In this document: positions 1 to 23,440 of the stretch, in pieces
Position numbering within the stretch: the first letter of the stretch is position 1
How the letters are laid out: each line of letters opens with the position of its first letter
Source: Candidatus Nanosynbacter lyticus
GTDB taxonomy: Bacteria; Patescibacteriota; Saccharimonadia; Saccharimonadales; Saccharimonadaceae
Direction: 5' to 3'
NCBI RefSeq assembly: GCF_030253515.1
Contig: NZ_CP124549.1
Coordinates: 360,001 to 392,000 of the forward strand
Length of the DNA: 32,000 nt
Translations under genes and position numbers: made by a program
The notes under the pieces: model-generated
Seen by the model: the letters and a program-made list of their open reading frames with translations, nothing else
Databases searched by the model: none
Told to the model about the DNA's origin: nothing

Positions 1-645
1 CTCTTTGCCTTGAGCGCGGTTGCGGATGTCGCCGTTGATGGTTAGTAACGTTCGTGGGGCGATTTCGTCACGTAGTTTGATGATGTCGTCGATGAGTTCG
101 TAGTGCGCCGGGACTTTGCTCATTTCTTTCTTGGTGCGCAGGTGGATGGTTAGATTGACAATATCTTGTCGCAAAATAGTCGCGAGCCATTCGCGCCATT
201 CATCGACATGGGTGTAGCCCAGCCTGGTTTTGACACTGACGGGCAACCTGGCAGTTTTGGCGGCGGCGATGGCAGCAACTGCTACGTCAGGTCGGCGGAT
301 GAGCGCTGCGCCACCAGATTTGATGGCGGATTTGGCGGGACAGCCCATGTTGATGTCGATGCCGTCAAAGCCGAGCCTGGCACAATAGCCAGCAAATTGC
401 TCCATATCCCCTGGTTCGCCGCCCCAGATTTGGGCGACCAGCGGATGCTCGTCGTCGGTTTTGACCAACCGCCCAGCGATGGCTTTGTCGCCGGCGTGCA
501 CCCAGCCGGTGGCATTGGCAAATTCGGTGAAAAACACATCGGGGGCGCCCGCCCTTTTCACGACATGGCGAAAGACGACGTCGGTGACGGCCTCCATGGG
601 TGCCAAAATGAAAAATGGCTGTGGTAGATTGTCCCAAAAGGTCAT
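1..645 (-). CDS. dus: tRNA-dihydrouridine synthase (Dus), C-terminus cut by the window edge; absent from the ORF track
   Basis: The reverse complement starts with ATG at 645-643 and reads MTFWDNLPQPFFILAPMEAVTDVVFRHVVKRAG...GFDGIDINMGCPAK...VSVKTRLGY with no stop through nt 1 (215 codons). DINMGCP is the Dus family signature. Confidence 0.85.
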   Translation of the reverse strand, partial: MTFWDNLPQPFFILAPMEAVTDVVFRHVVKRAGAPDVFFTEFANATGWVHAGDKAIAGRLVKTDDEHPLVAQIWGGEPGDMEQFAGYCARLGFDGIDINMGCPAKSAIKSGGAALIRRPDVAVAAIAAAKTARLPVSVKTRLGYTHVDEWREWLATILRQDIVNLTIHLRTKKEMSKVPAHYELIDDIIKLRDEIAPRTLLTINGDIRNRAQGKE

Positions 646-647
646 GT

Positions 648-1568
648 TCACGTCACCAGTCCTTTGCTAAACAATATACTTTCCGCGATAAATAGACGCA
701 GCGCCTCCAGCTCGCCGCGAACCTGCGCTCGCTCCAGATAGGTATAGTACGCTCGCTTGCGCTCTTTGGCGACGAGGGGTGGCACCAACCCCAGTTGTAG
801 GGCCTGGACAAAGAGCAAGAGTCGCCCGGTGCGACCGTTGCCATCGCTAAACGGATGGATTTTTTCAAATGTCGCATGAGTACGGGCTAGCCATTCTATC
901 GGCTCTGTTTTGGGTAATTTGTTCATTTCGTCAACACACTCGGACATCGCTTCAGTAATGCGCAGATGGTTTACTGTTGTGACGCGACTACCCATGATGC
1001 GCACACCGTGCCGGCGGTAGAGTCCGGCGTCAGACACCAGCGTGTTCATCAGCCGGACGTGCGTTTGCAAGATCAGCTCTTCGCTCCACGTAAAATGCGT
1101 CCCTTCTTTGTGTAAGGCATCCAGCAGAAAGTAGAGCGCAGTACGGTGGTTACGGGCCTCTATCTGTTCGCGCGCTGTCTTGTTGGCGAGGACGCGATTA
1201 TCATCGTTCAGCACCTCTGCGACGTCCGCTAGGGTCATTGTGCTACCCTCGATCGTGTTCGTGTGGTAGGTCAAGTGGAGCGTCAGGATGTCAAGTAATT
1301 CTTGATTCGCCAGGAGTGTCCGGATCGTCATGCGGCTGGCCTGGGCGGCACGTTCAGTAGCGAGGCGCTTCGCCTCGTCGATGGTGTCCCGCCCGAGCAT
1401 CTCTTGATGTAATAGCTGAATATTCGCCAGGTTTTTGGCACGCGGCGACATATGTTGGTGTACCCAGGCGTTGAGCGTACGCACCGGCACATCTAGGCGA
1501 CGCGCCAGTTGTTCTTGGGTAAGGCCTGTCCGCACCAGAATTTCTTGGAGTAATTGCGCAGCATTCAT
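648..1568 (-). CDS. Fic/DOC-family protein with an N-terminal Xre-type HTH (probable AMPylase, class II autoinhibited type)
   Basis: The Fic core motif HPFSDGNGRTGR is present. An inhibitory-helix-like motif TNTIEG, matching (S/T)xxxE(G/N), lies upstream of the core. The N-terminus LTQEQLARRLDVPVRTLNAWV is HTH-like. Confidence 0.9.
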   Translation of the reverse strand: MNAAQLLQEILVRTGLTQEQLARRLDVPVRTLNAWVHQHMSPRAKNLANIQLLHQEMLGRDTIDEAKRLATERAAQASRMTIRTLLANQELLDILTLHLTYHTNTIEGSTMTLADVAEVLNDDNRVLANKTAREQIEARNHRTALYFLLDALHKEGTHFTWSEELILQTHVRLMNTLVSDAGLYRRHGVRIMGSRVTTVNHLRITEAMSECVDEMNKLPKTEPIEWLARTHATFEKIHPFSDGNGRTGRLLLFVQALQLGLVPPLVAKERKRAYYTYLERAQVRGELEALRLFIAESILFSKGLVT

Positions 1569-2580: not shown

Positions 2581-5500
2581 TCATTCCTTTGTCAACAAAT
2601 CATCCTCAAACTGCATCATCCCCTTATAATCTGCTGAATACCCAGAGATATCCGGTAGACTCAGCGTGGTGATTTTCCGCCAGACGACATTGATCAGCCG
2701 GGCGAATTCAGTCAGTTCTTCCTCAGAGAACGTGTCTTCCAAGCTGAGGATGTCGCCGGTTTTCATGTCCGGCTCGACGAACTGCAGGCGGGCGCCGGTG
2801 AAGGTGAAATTGCTATAATCACGCGACGACGTGACCAGGAGTTGATAAAACATCAGCTGCTGGCGGTATTTGTGGAGCTTGATTTTTTCGTAATCAGATG
2901 TGCCCCTCCAGGAGTGTGACGGCTTGCCGGTCTTATAATCGGTCACGAAGATGGTTTTATTATGCTTATCAATGTCGGCGACGTCCAGCTTGCCGGTCAG
3001 GCGCGCGCCGCCAACGACGACGCCTTGGTGAGCGAAATCGAGTTCCGCGAGCTCCGTGTCATGAAAATCGGACGATTTGGCGTCCAGAAACGCCGTCAGC
3101 GCTGCCGTACCCTTGTCTAGATATAGCGCGAAATCGTCGGGAGGTAGGTGCTGGGCCTCAAGCGATGTGCGGAAATATTGGAGAATGCGCTCGGTGGGCG
3201 GCAGGCGGTGGTCGGCGCGCAGCAGATTGTGCAGCTGCTGGAGACTGGCGTGGATGGCGGTGCCGTAGCTGGCGGCGGGACTCTTAGCGGACGGAAAGCG
3301 CAGGAGATTGTTCAACAAAAAGTTCTGTGGTCCGCCGCGCGAGACGTCGAGGAAATTATTGAGATGAGTGACGGAAAGTTTGTAGGTTTCTAAGGTCGGC
3401 GCCAGCACATCCTTGAGATCTGTGGTAATCGGCGCACTCAGCCGCGTGCTCCAGTCGGTTTGCGCCACGGTAATTTGCGCCGCGGGCGTGTCGGCAGCGG
3501 GGATAATCGTCGGTGCGTGGTCGGTCAGGAAGCTGGCGATCATGGTGTCGCTGCCGGCGTCGTTGGTCTGGGAATAGGTCATGGTCAGGGTGGTTTTGGC
3601 GCGGGTCATCGCCACAAAGAATAGCCGCAGCCGCTCGTCGTAGCTGGCGCCGGCGGGCTGGAGCTGGAGGTTGGCGGGATAGCGAATTAGCCGTGAGCGC
3701 GAGCGGACTTTCTCGCCCCACGCGCTGTCGATTGCCCCGATGACGAAAACGTGTGGGAATTCTAGGCCCTTGGATTTGTGGGCGGTCATTAGGTTGATAG
3801 CGCCGCCGAGGGCGCTGGCCTGGGGGCGGATGTGCGTCAGGCGGGTTTTGGTCGAGCGGTGCAGGTCGATGAATTCCAGGAAGTCCGCCAATGTCGGGGC
3901 CGCGTCGGTGATGCGGTCGCGTAATTTTTGGCGCAGCGTGCGTAGGCTCTCGAGCGTGGTCAGGTAGGCGTCGGGGTGTTCGGCAAGGGCTTCGGGCGAG
4001 AAGTAGTGGGCGGCAAGAGAGGTGGGCGAGGAACTTTCCTCAAAGCTCCGTACGGCGATTGCAGCCCGAGCGTCCTCGTTGGTTGGTGGCAAAGAACTCT
4101 TGTCGGAGCAAGCACTGCTGGAATTGCTCTGATCGACTCCGTACAGCGATTGCAGCCCGAGCGTCCTCTGACGCCCGGCGCGTAAAGAGGAGTCGATTGG
4201 AGTAATTCCAGCATCCATCTCCAGCCCCAACAACCTATCCAACTGCTCCTCCAGCGGCAAATTTGGCACGTCCTTCGCTCGCTCTAGCAGCCACTCGCCG
4301 AACGGCTGAAAGGTGCTGTTCGCCAGCATACTCTCCAGCCACAGCTGCCAATTGTTATAGGCATGGAGGCTGAGCCGCCAGATATCCAGCGCCGAAAAGC
4401 CAAACGCCGGATGGGCGATGACCTCTGGTAGTAAGCTGTTGGCGACGTCAAGATTATTCTGATGAATCGCCATGACGACCCGCGCTAGCTTGTCCAGCGC
4501 TTGAATGATGTCTTGCTCCAGGATGTCGTCGTGGCGCTCATAATTAACGGTCAGATTCTCCCGGTACAGATACGGCAGCAGCTCGATCAGCTCCTTGTGA
4601 TGGCGGGCGATGACGGTGATGTGCGCTGGGTTTTCGCCGCATTTGATCAGCTCGGCAATGTGCCGGGCCACCCCTGCCCGCTCCTCGCTCACCGAGGCAA
4701 ATTCCTGGATTTCAACCCGCGCGCCGTTACCAGACGCGTGTGCGGTCAATTGTTTTGACAAGCCGTCAATGGTGTTTTCTAAGCGATCCGTCCCCTGGGT
4801 AATCACTCCGCGCGCCGCCGTCAAGATGTCAGCCGCCGAGCGGTAATTGTCCGTCAGCACGATGATTTTCGGGTCGTGATAGTGCTGGCGGAAGCGCTGG
4901 ATATTGCCAACATCCGCGCCCTGAAAACTGAAAATCGCCTGGTCGTCGTCGCCGACCGCCATGATGTTGGGATTGTCCTCATCGCCGGTCAGGTCGAACA
5001 GCAGCCGCAGCTGCGCCAGATTGGTGTCCTGAAATTCGTCGACCATGATGAACTGAAATTGCTCCTGGAGGTTGGCGCGCAGTTCTGGGTGGGACTCGCA
5101 GGCTTGAATGACCGACAAAATCATGTCGTCGTAGTCAAACAGCGATCTCTCGGCTAGCACGTTGCCATATGCTTCGTAGACGTCAATGGCGGCGGATAAT
5201 TTCTCGCTGGCGGTAAAATCCTTCAGGACGAACTCGCCGGCGGCGTTCTTTTCGCACCATTTGTTTTTCCAGGCGGTTAGCGGTTTGGTGGAGTTGGCAT
5301 CAATTGCCTCTTGGGCTGCGTGGGCGATGCTGAGTGCCAGAACTTGAGCGTACGGGGTGATGGAGGACGGTAAATTGGCGTGATGTGGTGTCGAGCTGGC
5401 CGTATTTTCAGAAAGTTCCGTAGCACCTCTCTCGCCGACCCTCTTGGCAATCTTCTCCGCCAGCGGCGCAAATAATTCGATGGTTTTTTTAGAAATTTTG

Positions 5501-6072
5501 GCCGCAAATACCTGCTGAATGTCGGAGGCAATGTCGGCGATGACGCGCTGATTATCCGCCGTAATCGCCCGCAGTTCCGCTGGCGTGAGGCCGCTCTGCT
5601 TGAACTCGGAAATGACTCGGATCAGCTCGCTGGTGTAGACGAATTCACCGTTGTTTTTAACGCTCAGCGGATTACGCCAATCAAGCCTCTCTAGAATCCC
5701 CGCGACAATTTGGTGCTGCGTCAGTTCATCCGCTGGTTGAGCGTCAGCACCGTGAAAAAAATATTCCCTGTGCTGATTGATAATCTCCGTGCCGAAGCTG
5801 TGAAAGGTGTGAATGGCAATTTTATACGCATCCTCGCCGATGATCTGGCGCAGGCGCTGGCGCATGTTGGCGGCGCCGCTCTCGGTAAAGGTCAGGCATA
5901 AAATACTATCCGGCAGCGTGTCGGTCTGGCGCAAAATCTGGGCGGTGCGCATGCTCAGCAGCTCGGTCTTGCCCGTGCCTGGCCCGGCGATCACTAGGAG
6001 CGAACCGTGAATATAATCGACCGCTTGGCGCTGATTGGCGTTCAGCGTGGCGTAGCGAGTGTCAAAATCCAT
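2581..6072 (-). CDS. UvrD/PcrA-family helicase fused to a C-terminal RecB-type PD-(D/E)xK nuclease (AddA-like)
   Basis: Walker A AGPGTGKT, motif II VDEFQDTN, and the C-terminal nuclease motif DVADID...FVTDYKTGK. Length 1163 aa. Confidence 0.9.
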   Translation of the reverse strand: MDFDTRYATLNANQRQAVDYIHGSLLVIAGPGTGKTELLSMRTAQILRQTDTLPDSILCLTFTESGAANMRQRLRQIIGEDAYKIAIHTFHSFGTEIINQHREYFFHGADAQPADELTQHQIVAGILERLDWRNPLSVKNNGEFVYTSELIRVISEFKQSGLTPAELRAITADNQRVIADIASDIQQVFAAKISKKTIELFAPLAEKIAKRVGERGATELSENTASSTPHHANLPSSITPYAQVLALSIAHAAQEAIDANSTKPLTAWKNKWCEKNAAGEFVLKDFTASEKLSAAIDVYEAYGNVLAERSLFDYDDMILSVIQACESHPELRANLQEQFQFIMVDEFQDTNLAQLRLLFDLTGDEDNPNIMAVGDDDQAIFSFQGADVGNIQRFRQHYHDPKIIVLTDNYRSAADILTAARGVITQGTDRLENTIDGLSKQLTAHASGNGARVEIQEFASVSEERAGVARHIAELIKCGENPAHITVIARHHKELIELLPYLYRENLTVNYERHDDILEQDIIQALDKLARVVMAIHQNNLDVANSLLPEVIAHPAFGFSALDIWRLSLHAYNNWQLWLESMLANSTFQPFGEWLLERAKDVPNLPLEEQLDRLLGLEMDAGITPIDSSLRAGRQRTLGLQSLYGVDQSNSSSACSDKSSLPPTNEDARAAIAVRSFEESSSPTSLAAHYFSPEALAEHPDAYLTTLESLRTLRQKLRDRITDAAPTLADFLEFIDLHRSTKTRLTHIRPQASALGGAINLMTAHKSKGLEFPHVFVIGAIDSAWGEKVRSRSRLIRYPANLQLQPAGASYDERLRLFFVAMTRAKTTLTMTYSQTNDAGSDTMIASFLTDHAPTIIPAADTPAAQITVAQTDWSTRLSAPITTDLKDVLAPTLETYKLSVTHLNNFLDVSRGGPQNFLLNNLLRFPSAKSPAASYGTAIHASLQQLHNLLRADHRLPPTERILQYFRTSLEAQHLPPDDFALYLDKGTAALTAFLDAKSSDFHDTELAELDFAHQGVVVGGARLTGKLDVADIDKHNKTIFVTDYKTGKPSHSWRGTSDYEKIKLHKYRQQLMFYQLLVTSSRDYSNFTFTGARLQFVEPDMKTGDILSLEDTFSEEELTEFARLINVVWRKITTLSLPDISGYSADYKGMMQFEDDLLTKE
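4045..4109 (-). repeat. Degenerate copy (R3) of a roughly 65-nt palindromic structured repeat, inside the helicase CDS
   Basis: The 32-nt core at 4046-4077 matches 4137-4168 at 31 of 32 positions. The terminal inverted repeat is GCTCCG (4045-4050) / CGGAGC (4104-4109). Confidence 0.7.
4132..4197 (-). repeat. Copy R2 of the palindromic structured repeat, inside the helicase CDS
   Basis: The terminal inverted repeat is ATCGACTCC (4132-4140) / GGAGTCGAT (4189-4197). The core aligns with 22561-22615 apart from the hairpin loop. Confidence 0.75.
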
Positions 6073-6127: not shown

Positions 6128-6604
6128 ATGCACGATGAACGGGCGCTTGCAGCATTGATTGATGATCAGTTTGGACTGACGGTCAAAATCCAGTCGGTCG
6201 TGCTGCCGATGAGCGATGTTAGCCGCACGGCGCAGGCGACGGTGGTGCTTGATAGGACGGGTGAATTGTTGGCTTACATTACAGCGCGGGCCATCATGAC
6301 GCTAGGCGATGTCAAGCGATTGGTGCGGCGAATGGGCTTGCGGCCAGAGCGGTTCGTGCCGCCAAAGCACCAGCCGAACTACTTTGACGACGTGGCAACC
6401 GAGAAGTTTCAGGCGGTTTTTCCGGGGATGAAGGTGACTTCGCCGGATGACTTGATATATTATCGGACGCTGGTGCCGTATAATCCAGCCCTGGTCGTCA
6501 TATCAGAGGTCAAGCGTGGCGAAATATACCAATTTGACCCGGACGCGCGCGGTGGGTATCGCGTCGGGGCGCGATTACATTACAAAAGGAGCGAGGCAAT
6601 ATAA
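6128..6604 (+). CDS. Hypothetical protein (158 aa)
   Basis: The ORF has leaderless-type promoter geometry. Its stop overlaps the ATPase start (TAATG at 6602-6606), suggesting translational coupling. No motif was recognised. Confidence 0.6.
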   Translation: MHDERALAALIDDQFGLTVKIQSVVLPMSDVSRTAQATVVLDRTGELLAYITARAIMTLGDVKRLVRRMGLRPERFVPPKHQPNYFDDVATEKFQAVFPGMKVTSPDDLIYYRTLVPYNPALVVISEVKRGEIYQFDPDARGGYRVGARLHYKRSEAI

Positions 6605-9051
6605 TGCGAGATTATCTAGACATTATCAAGAGAAATTTACTATCGCCAATTGTACTGGCGATTTTCCTGCTGGCCGGGGCGCTGATTTATGTGCGCGAGT
6701 ACCGCGATGCTTGGTTTATTTCGGTGGTGATCGTGGTCAACTCGCTGATCGGCATCGTGCAGGAAATTCGCGCCAAGCGGGTGCTGCACCGGCTGGAGCT
6801 GATGAGTGCACCCAGGGCGCGGGTGCTGCGCGACGGCCAGGCGGTGGAGGTGCCGTATGATTCGCTGGTGGTGGGTGATGAGATTATCCTTAGGGCTGGT
6901 GATGAGCTGCCGGCGGACGCGGCAGTGACAGCGTCGAAGGGCCTGGAGCTGAATGAAAGTATGCTCACTGGCGAGTCGGCGGCGGTCGAGAAAGCGGCTG
7001 GCGACACGGTGCTGGCGGCAACCACGGTGCTGGCGGGTGAAGGTACGGCGCGGGTCACGGCGGTTGGCGACCAAACGAAGGCTGGTGCCATCAGCCAAGT
7101 CCTCAAGCGCTACAAACCGGAGCTGACGCCGCTGCAGGTGGCAATTTGGCGGGCGATTACCTTCTTGACATATGGTGCAATTATCTTAGCAGCGCTGATT
7201 TTTACCGTGTATTATTTGTCGGGTGATAACGTGGTGATTATCCTAAAGACCATTACTTCGGCGGCGGTAACGGTGGTGCCGGAGGGGCTGCTGCTGGCCA
7301 GTTCCCTGCTGCTGGCGTTCGGCTCGCTGCGGCTGGCGCAGGCCAAGGTGTTGCCGCAGAAATTGGCGGCGATCGAGGCGATGGCGCTGCTTAATTTATT
7401 GGCGGTGGACAAGACTGGTACGCTGACCAGCGACGAGGTGACGCTGGAGCGGGTGGTGGCGTTTGATGAGATGATGCCGGCAAATTCGATTACGGATACC
7501 TCGGAAAAATCCGCAGCCCAAGCGACCGCGGGCAGCCCAGCGCGTAGATTTTCGGAGATAAAACTATCTGAAGCTGCTTCGGACGTTGCCGAGCTGGCAG
7601 CCCTTATCGCTCATGAAACCAGCGGCGGCAATATCACTGGGCAAGCAATTCTCGCGGAACTCACGCCGTCCAAGCACGCAGACATCATCGAGGTGATGGC
7701 CTTTTCCTCGGCGCGCAAGATGGCGGGCGTTCGGGCGAAGGTCGACGGCACGGTGCGGACGTTGATGATGGGAGCGCCAGAGTTTGTGGCTAAATTGGCG
7801 CCGGTTGACACCATGTTGCAACGCCAGCTGGATGAGTGGGCGGACAGCGGCCTCAGGGTGCTGATGCTGGCGGAATTTGATGATGAAACGACTAAATTGA
7901 AGGATTTGCCAGACAGTTCTGGGCGGGCGATTGGCGCGGTGATTTTACGTAATTCCCTGCGCGACGGCGTGATTGACACGGTCAAGTTCCTCCAGCAGCA
8001 AGGCGTGGTCATCCGGGTGATTTCCGGCGACAATCCGCGTACCGTGCAGCATATCGCGCGCGAGGCGGGTATCGCTAATCCGGACAAGGCCATCCTCGGC
8101 TCGGTATTGGCAGGTCTCAGCGACAAAGCTTTCAATAAGGCTGCCGACGAGCACACAATTTTTGCCCGCGTGCTGCCAGAGCAAAAGGAGCGGCTGATCG
8201 CTCATTTCAAGCAGTCCGGCAAGTTCACCGGCATGGTCGGCGACGGCGTCAACGACGCGCTGGCGTTGAAAAAATCTGACCTCGGTGTGGCGATGTACGC
8301 GGGTGCTCCGGCATCGCGGCGGGTGGCGGACATTATTTTACTCAATAATTCGTTTACGTCCCTGCCGATTGGCATGAAGCTGGGTAATCGAATTATGCAA
8401 GCGATCGAAGTCATCGCTACCCTGTTCTTTCACAAGATTATTTACGGCGTGGTGCTGCTACTGAGTACCATGCTGGTCGGGCTGAATTATCCGTACGCGC
8501 CGCGGCACATCACCTTTCTCAATATTTTCCTGGTGACCATGCCGACGATTATGTGGACGCTGTTTCCGCCGCGGCCGCGTCATCGGGTCAATCCGGCGCA
8601 TTTCTGGCGTGACACTCTGCAGGCGGTGGCGCCGATCGCGCTGCTGACGGGCCTGACGGTGGCGTTTACTTACTGGTCGGGCGTGACGCTGCATCCACAT
8701 CAGGCGGCCGAGGCAGCGACGATGACGGTCCTGACAGCCACATTCTTTGGGATTTATCTGGTGTTTTTGGTCGGGCCGATGCTCGGTGTGGTCCTCGATA
8801 GGCGGGCGCACCTGGCGCGGACGCTGTATATGGCGGGCGTGCTGTTCGTTACCTTGGTGAGTTTTGGTATTGAGCCGCTCAGGCAGTTCTTTGACTTTAC
8901 CATGCCAAATGTTGCCCTGCTCTGGCCGGGCATCGCTGTGGTCATCCCCGTCGCCCTGGCCCAGTGGTGGCTGGCTCGCCGCGCTGGTCGGAAGTTTGCT
9001 GATATGGTAGAGGCGGCCGACGAGCGGACGAAGACGAACCGCCCAGAATGA
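6604..9051 (+). CDS. Cation-translocating P-type ATPase
   Basis: TGES actuator motif, phosphorylation site DKTGTLT, hinge GDGVNDALALKKSDLGVAM, and multiple TM helices at both ends. Confidence 0.92.
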   Translation: MRDYLDIIKRNLLSPIVLAIFLLAGALIYVREYRDAWFISVVIVVNSLIGIVQEIRAKRVLHRLELMSAPRARVLRDGQAVEVPYDSLVVGDEIILRAGDELPADAAVTASKGLELNESMLTGESAAVEKAAGDTVLAATTVLAGEGTARVTAVGDQTKAGAISQVLKRYKPELTPLQVAIWRAITFLTYGAIILAALIFTVYYLSGDNVVIILKTITSAAVTVVPEGLLLASSLLLAFGSLRLAQAKVLPQKLAAIEAMALLNLLAVDKTGTLTSDEVTLERVVAFDEMMPANSITDTSEKSAAQATAGSPARRFSEIKLSEAASDVAELAALIAHETSGGNITGQAILAELTPSKHADIIEVMAFSSARKMAGVRAKVDGTVRTLMMGAPEFVAKLAPVDTMLQRQLDEWADSGLRVLMLAEFDDETTKLKDLPDSSGRAIGAVILRNSLRDGVIDTVKFLQQQGVVIRVISGDNPRTVQHIAREAGIANPDKAILGSVLAGLSDKAFNKAADEHTIFARVLPEQKERLIAHFKQSGKFTGMVGDGVNDALALKKSDLGVAMYAGAPASRRVADIILLNNSFTSLPIGMKLGNRIMQAIEVIATLFFHKIIYGVVLLLSTMLVGLNYPYAPRHITFLNIFLVTMPTIMWTLFPPRPRHRVNPAHFWRDTLQAVAPIALLTGLTVAFTYWSGVTLHPHQAAEAATMTVLTATFFGIYLVFLVGPMLGVVLDRRAHLARTLYMAGVLFVTLVSFGIEPLRQFFDFTMPNVALLWPGIAVVIPVALAQWWLARRAGRKFADMVEAADERTKTNRPE

Positions 9052-9213
9052 GCGGGCGAGTAGTTCCAATCCCTGATTATCTCCAATGAAAATAGCCCAC
9101 CGAACGAGCTCAAACCAGAACTGGATATATCTCAACCCAGGAAATGCAAGTAATGCATCTCAACCAGTTTGAGCCCAGTCGGTGAGCCATTTTCGGTGGG
9201 CAGCCCTTTGCCC

Positions 9214-22506: not shown

Positions 22507-22534
22507 GGTATTCTCCTTAGATTATTAATTAATT

Positions 22535-22639
22535 TCTGAGTTTGTAAAATCTTCATAAGTCTCCGTGCAGCGATTGCAGCCCGAGCGCGTGAGCGCCCGG
22601 CGCGAAAAGAGGAGGCGTTGAAGATTTTATGAACTCAGA
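22535..22639 (-). repeat. Copy R1 of the palindromic structured repeat, in the rplJ-rplL spacer, extended by 21-nt outer arms
   Basis: The outer arms are 22535-22555 and 22619-22639 (19 of 21 nt complementary). The core 22561-22615 is homologous to 4137-4193. The inner hairpin on the minus strand is GGGCGC-UCAC-GCGCUC. Confidence 0.75.
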
Positions 22640-23184: not shown

Positions 23185-23440
23185 AAAAATCCTTTCTTTG
23201 ATTGGTTCTTGTATGATTCGACCGATTTGTTAACGTGCGGTAATGGAGAATCTGGTTCTCGTTTATCTGGGCATTAGCCGAGCAAACAAAAACGTCTTTG
23301 ATTCTCGCACTACCAAAGACGTCAAATAAAACTGTTCGTTTCATCCCTCGGCGGCATTTTTATACCTCAGTTCCCTTCGGTCGCGCGCTGTCTTTGGTAA
23401 TGTTCATTAGAATTGTAGCAGAAATGACAACGGGATGCAA
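23185..23440 (-). promoter_or_regulatory. rplJ promoter plus a roughly 220-nt leader with terminator/antiterminator alternatives (L10-leader-like attenuator)
   Basis: The promoter is TTGCAT (23440-23435), 17 nt, TGCTACAAT (23420-23412). The leader segment ATTACCAAAGA (23401-23391) is complementary to the 5' half of the downstream terminator stem (23320-23310). Confidence 0.5.
23281..23322 (-). terminator. Intrinsic terminator (attenuator) inside the rplJ leader
   Basis: The minus strand reads ACGTCTTTG-13 nt-CAAAGACGT (9 bp), followed by TTTTGTTTGCT. Confidence 0.5.

Follow-up and report, generated by a model that had tools for sequence, protein, structure and literature searches.

What is a nucleotide repeat that a single protein-coding gene reads in two different frames? 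The question arises in a 32,000-nt stretch of the genome of Candidatus Nanosynbacter lyticus (NZ_CP124549.1, assembly GCF_030253515.1, positions 360,001–392,000, forward strand; hereafter the window), where a preliminary description had placed two copies of such a repeat in a gene for a helicase-nuclease and a third in the spacer between rplJ and rplL. The repeat observation is real. The 32-mer at 4046–4077 was matched at 4137–4168 in 31 of 32 positions (one mismatch, offset 91 nt, with no match expected from shuffles), and the 18-mer GCGATTGCAGCCCGAGCG occurred exactly three times in the window (at 4055, 4146 and 22570) against an expectation of 0.04. As described, the minus-strand open reading frame (ORF) of 1163 aa remained open across both copies and read them in two frames, the first as NEDARAAIAVRS (...NEDARAAIAVRSF...) and the second as ...RQRTLGLQSLYGV..., and the third copy lay between the L10 gene (22660–23184) and the L7/L12 gene (22129–22506). 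We favour the reading that the repeat belongs to an in-frame fold-back element of oral Saccharibacteria, similar to the Rickettsia palindromic elements (RPEs), which rearranges via its own inverted repeats and in effect produces a recoding intragenic inversion; we hold this reading with about even confidence.

A hairpin unit with a conserved core and locus-specific arms

Each copy had been reported to be bounded by a short inverted repeat of its own. For the second copy this held, except that the inverted repeat measures 25 nt and not 9 (4116–4140/4189–4213, 88% complementary); for the first copy, the 6-nt inverted repeat exists (4045–4050/4104–4109) but its fold was on a par with shuffles (z = −0.1). 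The unit is more extensive than first described, with a GC-rich core of 54–58 nt (CTCC...GGAG) that tips a stem of 20–28 bp; in the two complete units of the window, at 4116–4213 and 22535–22639, the core measured 54–56 nt and the stem 21–25 bp. In order, the core reads CTCC-GTRCAGCGATTGCAG-CCCGAGCG-loop-CGCCCGGC-GCGWAAAGA-GGAG, and its parts are a closing stem formed by CTCC and GGAG, a small hairpin, an inner hairpin of 9–11 bp that has a mismatched A and a bulged C, and a 3' junction rich in purines. The stem sequence is locus-specific, the helicase and rpl stems being unrelated.

The complete hairpin unit of the helicase gene, which corresponds to the second copy, occupies 98 nt (4116–4213, plus strand) with arms at 4116–4140 and 4189–4213 and a core at 4137–4192. 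It scored 91.5 bits with a covariance model built from 35 copies, and its fold was predicted at −59.5 kcal/mol for the plus strand (z = −8.5) and −53.9 kcal/mol for the minus strand. The first copy is a shortened unit (4025–4077, plus strand; 17.8 bits) made up of one arm (4025–4045) and the initial 32 nt of core sequence (4046–4077). Judged against the complete units at that position in L071, L046 and L144 (related loci are cited by such numbers throughout), its 3' core half and second arm are gone through a 45-nt in-frame deletion, and its fold was not significant; the same shortened first-unit arrangement was also seen in L057. Between the two units lies a spacer (4078–4115, plus strand) that is part of the insert, is translated as ACSDKSSLPPTN and is homologous to the spacer of two-unit alleles such as that of L019. 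The complete unit of the rplJ-rplL spacer (22535–22639, plus strand; core at 22561–22614) folded at −54.9 kcal/mol (z = −7.8) and scored 79.1 bits. Overall, units were 98–105 nt in length with complete-unit folds of −55 to −60 kcal/mol (z of about −8), and the covariance model, run with all filters off, found just these three copies in the window.

Over 62 distinct copies, stem pairing was present in 86.6% of cells, compared with 77.6% in shuffles and 30–55% in slid controls, and changes on both sides of a pair were seen in 18 of the 24 stem pairs. Visual inspection suggested a likeness to group II intron domain V, the hammerhead, the twister and signal recognition particle RNA, which was dropped for lack of support from models. 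Four to five of the six reading frames of the core were stop-free. Selection for stop-free frames was rejected because at least four open frames occurred in 70% of composition-matched shuffles, and the openness of the core, being ordinary for its base composition, needs no special explanation.

The insert in the helicase-nuclease and its structural alleles

The host gene (2581–6072, minus strand) encodes a UvrD-like helicase of 1163 aa with a C-terminal PD-(D/E)XK nuclease domain (Pfam PF00580, PF13361 and PF12705). Residues ~620–682 (4025–4218, minus strand) form an inserted segment that comprises the two hairpin units and the spacer, all translated in frame, and that stretches the PF13361 match, which spans residues 404–835. 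The extent of 153 nt, or 51 codons, given in the preliminary description had arbitrary boundaries; compared to the empty allele of L177, which has GAGCC in place of the insert, the window has 194 nt (4025–4218) replacing 5 nt and so is longer by 63 codons. In its length, the segment is a lineage-specific insertion: HMMER alignments of ~150 distant orthologs break at about residues 618/685, other Saccharibacteria have a linker of 7–20 aa at this position (LLGLTNDESGDLQVNSLANFYFSP in the TM7x clade), and in most orthologs the insert is absent or swapped for a short linker.

In the AlphaFold prediction of the helicase (overall predicted local distance difference test score [pLDDT] 79.7; predicted template modelling score 0.70), residues 620–682 were an unstructured, disordered loop with a pLDDT of ~30 between two confident helices; pLDDT was below 50 at residues 620–661 and 663–682, where no secondary structure was predicted. 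When the protein was aligned to PDB structures, the UvrD-aligned blocks stopped at residue 438 and resumed at 704, and the insert, which falls between them, lies in the region that corresponds to the UvrD 2B domain. The 2B domain regulates the activity of UvrD-family helicases. The location of the insert in a disordered loop, together with the existence of empty alleles, argues for tolerance of the element, and we infer that it is tolerated or selfish and not needed by the helicase.

The 120 closest helicase homologs (at least 88% identical) were 1102–1193 aa in length, and the whole of this variation lay between LLGLE and SLAAHYFSP, which were separated by 7–86 residues. At least seven structural alleles, with zero to two units in either orientation and empty alleles included, were found at this site among 116 close orthologs (at least 88% identical), and of the 39 alleles surveyed as DNA, 37 were in frame and stop-free at nine different lengths. 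The core was translated in four modes, namely two orientations in two frames each (LRTAIAARASSDARREKRS, SVQRLQPERPQTPGAKRGV, LLFTRRASEDARAAIAVRS and SSLRAGRQRTLGLQSLYGV). The peptides from these modes are unrelated, which bears out the earlier claim that conservation is at the nucleotide rather than the amino-acid level, and the repeat was accordingly rejected as a conserved segment of the protein. In L019 and L105 the same 20-bp arms surround the core in opposite orientations, and the proteins read SVQRLQPERPQTPGAKRGV and SSFRAGRLGTLGLQSLYGV, respectively; the difference between these two alleles is a clean inversion between the arms. Other changes at this site included core-to-core recombinants, microhomology deletions (in the first copy of the window and in L071) and units with hybrid arms (L136, L147, L132 and L067).

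Frameshifted inserts of 113 nt, hybrids of a unit-1 left arm and a unit-2 right arm, were observed in two metagenome contigs, at L136:4775–4842 and L147:12352–12419. These alleles are possibly core-to-core recombinants that switch the helicase off, or the product of an assembler that collapsed two identical 56-nt cores. That the segment is otherwise always kept in frame would fit selection on the protein as a low-complexity linker repeat, and the two frameshifts could be artefacts of assembly. Selection at the protein level, chance and artefact are nonetheless effectively refuted as explanations of the repeat, given the unrelated peptides from the four modes, the presence of the same core in a non-coding spacer, the expectation of zero chance matches and the occurrence of the element in ~90 independent public contigs.

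The structural state at the helicase site was uncorrelated with the relatedness of the flanks. The closest pairs of different structure were 93.9% identical, and the closest pairs of the same structure, two near-identical pairs aside, ~93.6%. Structural alleles were scattered over a neighbour-joining tree, on which recombination makes counts of events unreliable. Both orientations were seen between strains (as assembled contigs), and two contigs from one sample had the same structural allele.

Sites of the element and comparison with known systems

In species-representative genomes, the core was found in at least about 25 Saccharibacteria genomes, always at the helicase site or in the rplJ-rplL spacer among the matches listed; many other matches in species genomes were judged to be due to chance in GC-rich genomes. 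A stricter two-part pattern gave 51 cores over metagenome contigs, 23 in the rpl spacer, 28 at the helicase site and none elsewhere. Further copies do exist beyond the window, but the ~90 canonical cores found in public data are confined to these two loci, and the element is evidently not a dispersed transposon. In viral contigs the 18-mer gave six matches, which were taken as chance (their loci uninspected), and the 3' motif none; the element was not matched in phage and plasmid collections.

When the covariance model was run on related loci, diverged relatives appeared at a third site, in the neighbouring P-type ATPase gene, with one more in L034, and the signature common to the whole family is the inner hairpin RCCCGAGC...GCSCGGNGYG. 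The additional member in L034, a genus-level relative (L034:437–495, minus strand), is a diverged long hairpin of −58.5 kcal/mol inside the overlapping ORFs 185–1243 (minus) and 398–1237 (plus); no counterpart was detected at the equivalent position of the window.

In the window, the P-type ATPase gene (ORF 6604–9051) contains a decayed relative of the element at 7500–7557 (plus strand), the fold of which is no longer significant, and other strains have it intact, flipped or empty at the same codon position. Intact long hairpins were found in one orientation in L034, L179, L102, L136, L142, L160 and L161 and in the opposite one in L151 and L164, the alleles of L084, L060 and L067 were empty, and all 20 ATPase alleles were in frame without stops. 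The left outer arm at this site, GCTCGGCAATAGCT, is the exact reverse complement of AGCTATTGCCGAGC, the right flank native to the empty allele; in a different genus the ATPase site has other arms, which again run into the native coding sequence of that genus. Part of each stem is thus an inverted copy of host sequence, which is the mark left by copying through fold-back or template switching (PMC7202029, PMC9435742).

The entire rpl hairpin has opposite orientations in two sister groups of genomes; in the genome studied here, the core runs antisense to the genes for the ribosomal proteins. The outer arm of this hairpin makes up part of a promoter-like site at 22521–22548 (minus strand; TTTACA, 16 nt, AATAAT; 10 of 12 matches), which aims into rplL from just upstream of the rplL ribosome-binding site. 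Upstream of rplJ, an L10 leader (RF00557, 47.8 bits) was identified at 23278–23415 on the minus strand, so the operon has its usual leader besides the unusual spacer hairpin.

The element resides at a few fixed, permissive places (the disordered loop of the helicase, a loop of the P-type ATPase and the rplJ-rplL spacer), and where it is intragenic it is simply translated. In the mechanism that we propose, its long inverted-repeat arms would make it unstable: exchange between the arms, or template switching, would invert the core without ever shifting the downstream frame, tandem units would recombine, and hairpins would be lost partly or wholly, while the complementarity of the arms would be kept by copying one arm from the other. 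Selection would then remove products that are out of frame or bear stops, leaving a peptide segment that is hypervariable but always open. Recombination and template switching are what we infer as the source of the rearrangements described above; template switching is well established as a cause of mutation at quasipalindromes (PMC7202029; PMC9435742). Hairpin mini-inversions of this type share with the present element an inversion of the loop that does not depend on an enzyme, templated correction of the arms and short inverted copies of adjacent sequence (PMC7202029, PMC9435742), but they are usually anonymous mutational events, whereas here the events fall on a specific conserved core that is common to several loci. 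The fold-back arms also bear on MITEs (miniature transposable elements with inverted repeats), which were rejected as a candidate: arms differ between loci, with only the inner CTCC/GGAG in common, and filled and empty alleles differ by an inverted and not a direct copy of the flank. The 'flip-flop' hairpin inversions of chloroplasts are a further example of loop inversion that is independent of an enzyme.

A site-specific invertase that flips the 56-nt core within populations, and so programmes isoforms of the helicase (and ATPase) or switches them off, would produce many of the same alleles. The geometry fits, with inverted repeats of 20–25 bp around a 56-bp segment that is wholly intragenic; near-identical strains have both orientations, recoded without a frameshift; and the structural state is uncoupled from the phylogeny of the flanks. 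In the window allele, moreover, TGA and TAA occur in the sense frames of the core, and a flip would cut the helicase short. Recoding intragenic invertons (Chanin et al., PMC10028968) are documented at a similar size (57 bp), helicase genes included, and they resemble the present element as invertible segments of ~56 bp within ORFs, flanked by inverted repeats and recoding in frame, with stops added in some orientations. They are, however, defined by the presence of both orientations in one population and presumed to depend on an invertase (PMC10028968), whereas the assembled contigs used here show the two orientations only between strains, and the two contigs from one sample agreed. Helicase units, ATPase site and rpl spacer each have wholly different inverted repeats, which makes a single repeat-recognising recombinase unlikely, and the core is found in an intergenic hairpin as well and has been conserved from genus to genus. 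No recombinase gene was present among the window ORFs scanned with Pfam, and the deletions, duplications and hybrid arms at the same site are typical of unprogrammed palindrome instability. We therefore consider a programmed inverton distinctly improbable.

The likeness to RPEs suggested in the preliminary description applies to a palindromic element that sits in frame, but not to a dispersed one with a single conserved peptide; the comparison is by description. According to PMC10969869, RPEs are palindromes of ~100–150 bp that lie in frame inside genes of a reduced genome and also in non-coding DNA (Ogata et al. 2000, 2002, as cited there), are absent from orthologs and are tolerated at positions compatible with the protein fold. 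The same source gives them tens of copies in unrelated genes and one conserved, single-frame peptide per family, whereas the present element has two canonical loci (with diverged relatives at two more), four translation modes, locus-specific stems and flips between strains. REP/REPIN sequences and elements of the MITE type (ERIC, BOX and Correia) are likewise short, non-autonomous, hairpin-forming and sometimes intragenic, but they have conserved arms or terminal repeats, a variable loop and a high copy number, and MITEs also have target duplications and a parent transposase. The element described here reverses the REP/REPIN layout, with a conserved tip, variable arms and few loci.

Literature searches turned up no earlier description of such an element in Saccharibacteria, in line with what the preliminary description had presumed for the Candidate Phyla Radiation (CPR). 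As far as the searched literature shows, this would be the first protein-coding palindromic DNA described in Saccharibacteria or the CPR. It extends a phenomenon known mainly from Rickettsia and joins selfish in-frame palindromes with recoding intragenic inversions, which are usually treated apart. Within a human oral bacterial population, the same nucleotides give rise to four peptides and at least seven structural alleles, and the helicase site is a natural strain marker. Variation among isoforms in the counterpart of the 2B domain could affect DNA repair or recombination, and the repair toolkit of the organism is minimal.

Conservation of the core across genera

The comparison across genera is unbiased only for the protein-anchored loci L179 and L178. 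Within the clade, copies were retrieved by exact core patterns, and core conservation there was not used as evidence of constraint owing to this ascertainment bias. The L178 locus (P0272; helicase 57% identical) has a decayed relic at the same site. Distant relatives do have the same segment in nucleotides, but they use other frames and share no amino-acid conservation. The element is old, despite the lineage-specific length of the insertion.

Several observations weigh against the favoured reading of a tolerated fold-back element. In P0315/L179 (helicase 61% identical), as also in L034, the element is at the same site in another frame, and its core is identical in 53 of 56 nt. Over the gene as a whole, DNA identity to L179 is 65%, falling to 47% if only third codon positions are counted; windows of 56 nt had a mean of 36.8 matches and only catalytic motifs reached 53, so the core is conserved as well as these motifs. 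Core variants specific to a locus are common to the genera, GTCMTCWGRC at the helicase tip and TCCGGAACCCGAGCG...GCGCGGCGTG for the ATPase type. These variants look like the result of long vertical descent and purifying selection on nucleotides, unlike what a neutral insert would be expected to undergo. Furthermore, in either gene orientation most stem mismatches were G-T on the core-sense strand (by a reading of the mismatch strings, ~17 sites that appear independent against 6), and arms-only folds were more stable in the core-sense orientation in 33 of 36 helicase and 26 of 26 rpl copies; the copies behind both counts lack independence, and a flip of the whole hairpin passes the bias on. Together, the G-T bias and the arms-only stability hint at selection on a single-stranded form. 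Evidence of transposition was also lacking, with no shared terminal repeats, direct target duplications or transposase among the window ORFs scanned, and a Pfam scan of 18 window ORFs (all in the first 24 kb) found no transposase, recombinase or RAYT-like gene.

Conservation of this kind suggests that the hairpin has a function as RNA or DNA, a suggestion opposed by free orientation, frequent loss and decayed copies. The core could function as a structured nucleic acid under purifying selection, whether as an RNA motif or as a protein site in single-stranded or cruciform DNA, with the peptides as a by-product and the gene-embedded copies as functional sites housed where a compact genome tolerates them. 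The identity of 53 of 56 nt across genus-level divergence, in a segment that has no protein constraint and is read in different frames, speaks for this, as do the persistence of locus-specific variants at orthologous sites in two genera and core-sense stems that are rich in G-T whichever way the gene runs. The unpaired nucleotides of the junction do not vary, whereas the stems covary, and the A mismatch, which is conserved and faces C, G or A but never T, and the bulged C are typical of protein-recognition hairpins. However, at none of the three loci is the orientation of the element to the host transcript fixed, and a flip would destroy a cis-acting mRNA element. Neither window locus showed a promoter-like site from which a core-sense transcript could arise independently. 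In a search of Rfam 15, the L10 leader was the only match at gathering level in the window, and nothing relevant was found at either locus at E values up to 10. Empty alleles, shortened copies and decayed cores are common, and constraint on the core is not uniform, because in some helicase copies the 5' half of the core has decayed. Much of the apparent invariance is ascertainment bias, and the G-T bias can be inherited through whole-hairpin flips. We regard a functional nucleic acid as a serious but rather unlikely alternative to the tolerated fold-back element.

Less probable still is an undescribed functional module, a protein-recognition hairpin or a small ribozyme-like three-way junction, that is housed in disordered loops, so that flipping between the arms would toggle the active strand or transcript while recoding the host protein. 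If true, this would couple a switch at the RNA or DNA level to one at the protein level, in a CPR bacterium with almost no intergenic space. The conservation of nucleotides across genera poses the question of a hidden function of the core.

Three further features of the window concern its coding sequence and its inverted repeats. At nt ~3175–3230 of the helicase gene (window ~2843–2898), the stretch encoding DYEKIKLHKYRQQLMFYQ is identical to L179 in 53 of 56 positions, synonymous sites included, compared to 65% for the whole gene; codon bias, constraint at the nucleotide level or local exchange could explain this. An ORF without a Pfam match (1636–1998) contains short perfect or near-perfect palindromes at 1707–1730, 1818–1857, 1859–1882 and 1888–1916. 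Finally, just downstream of the P-type ATPase gene, a Y-shaped hairpin of 119 nt (9081–9199) folded at −64.6 kcal/mol on the minus strand (z = −8.6) and −42.5 kcal/mol on the plus strand, a gap that points to many G-U pairs and probably to an RNA of the minus strand. It had no Rfam match and was 77–99% conserved in six full-length matches in related loci, with a seventh (L060) being partial. This hairpin has the same architecture as the element studied here, a long stem with two tip hairpins, and is unrelated to it in sequence.

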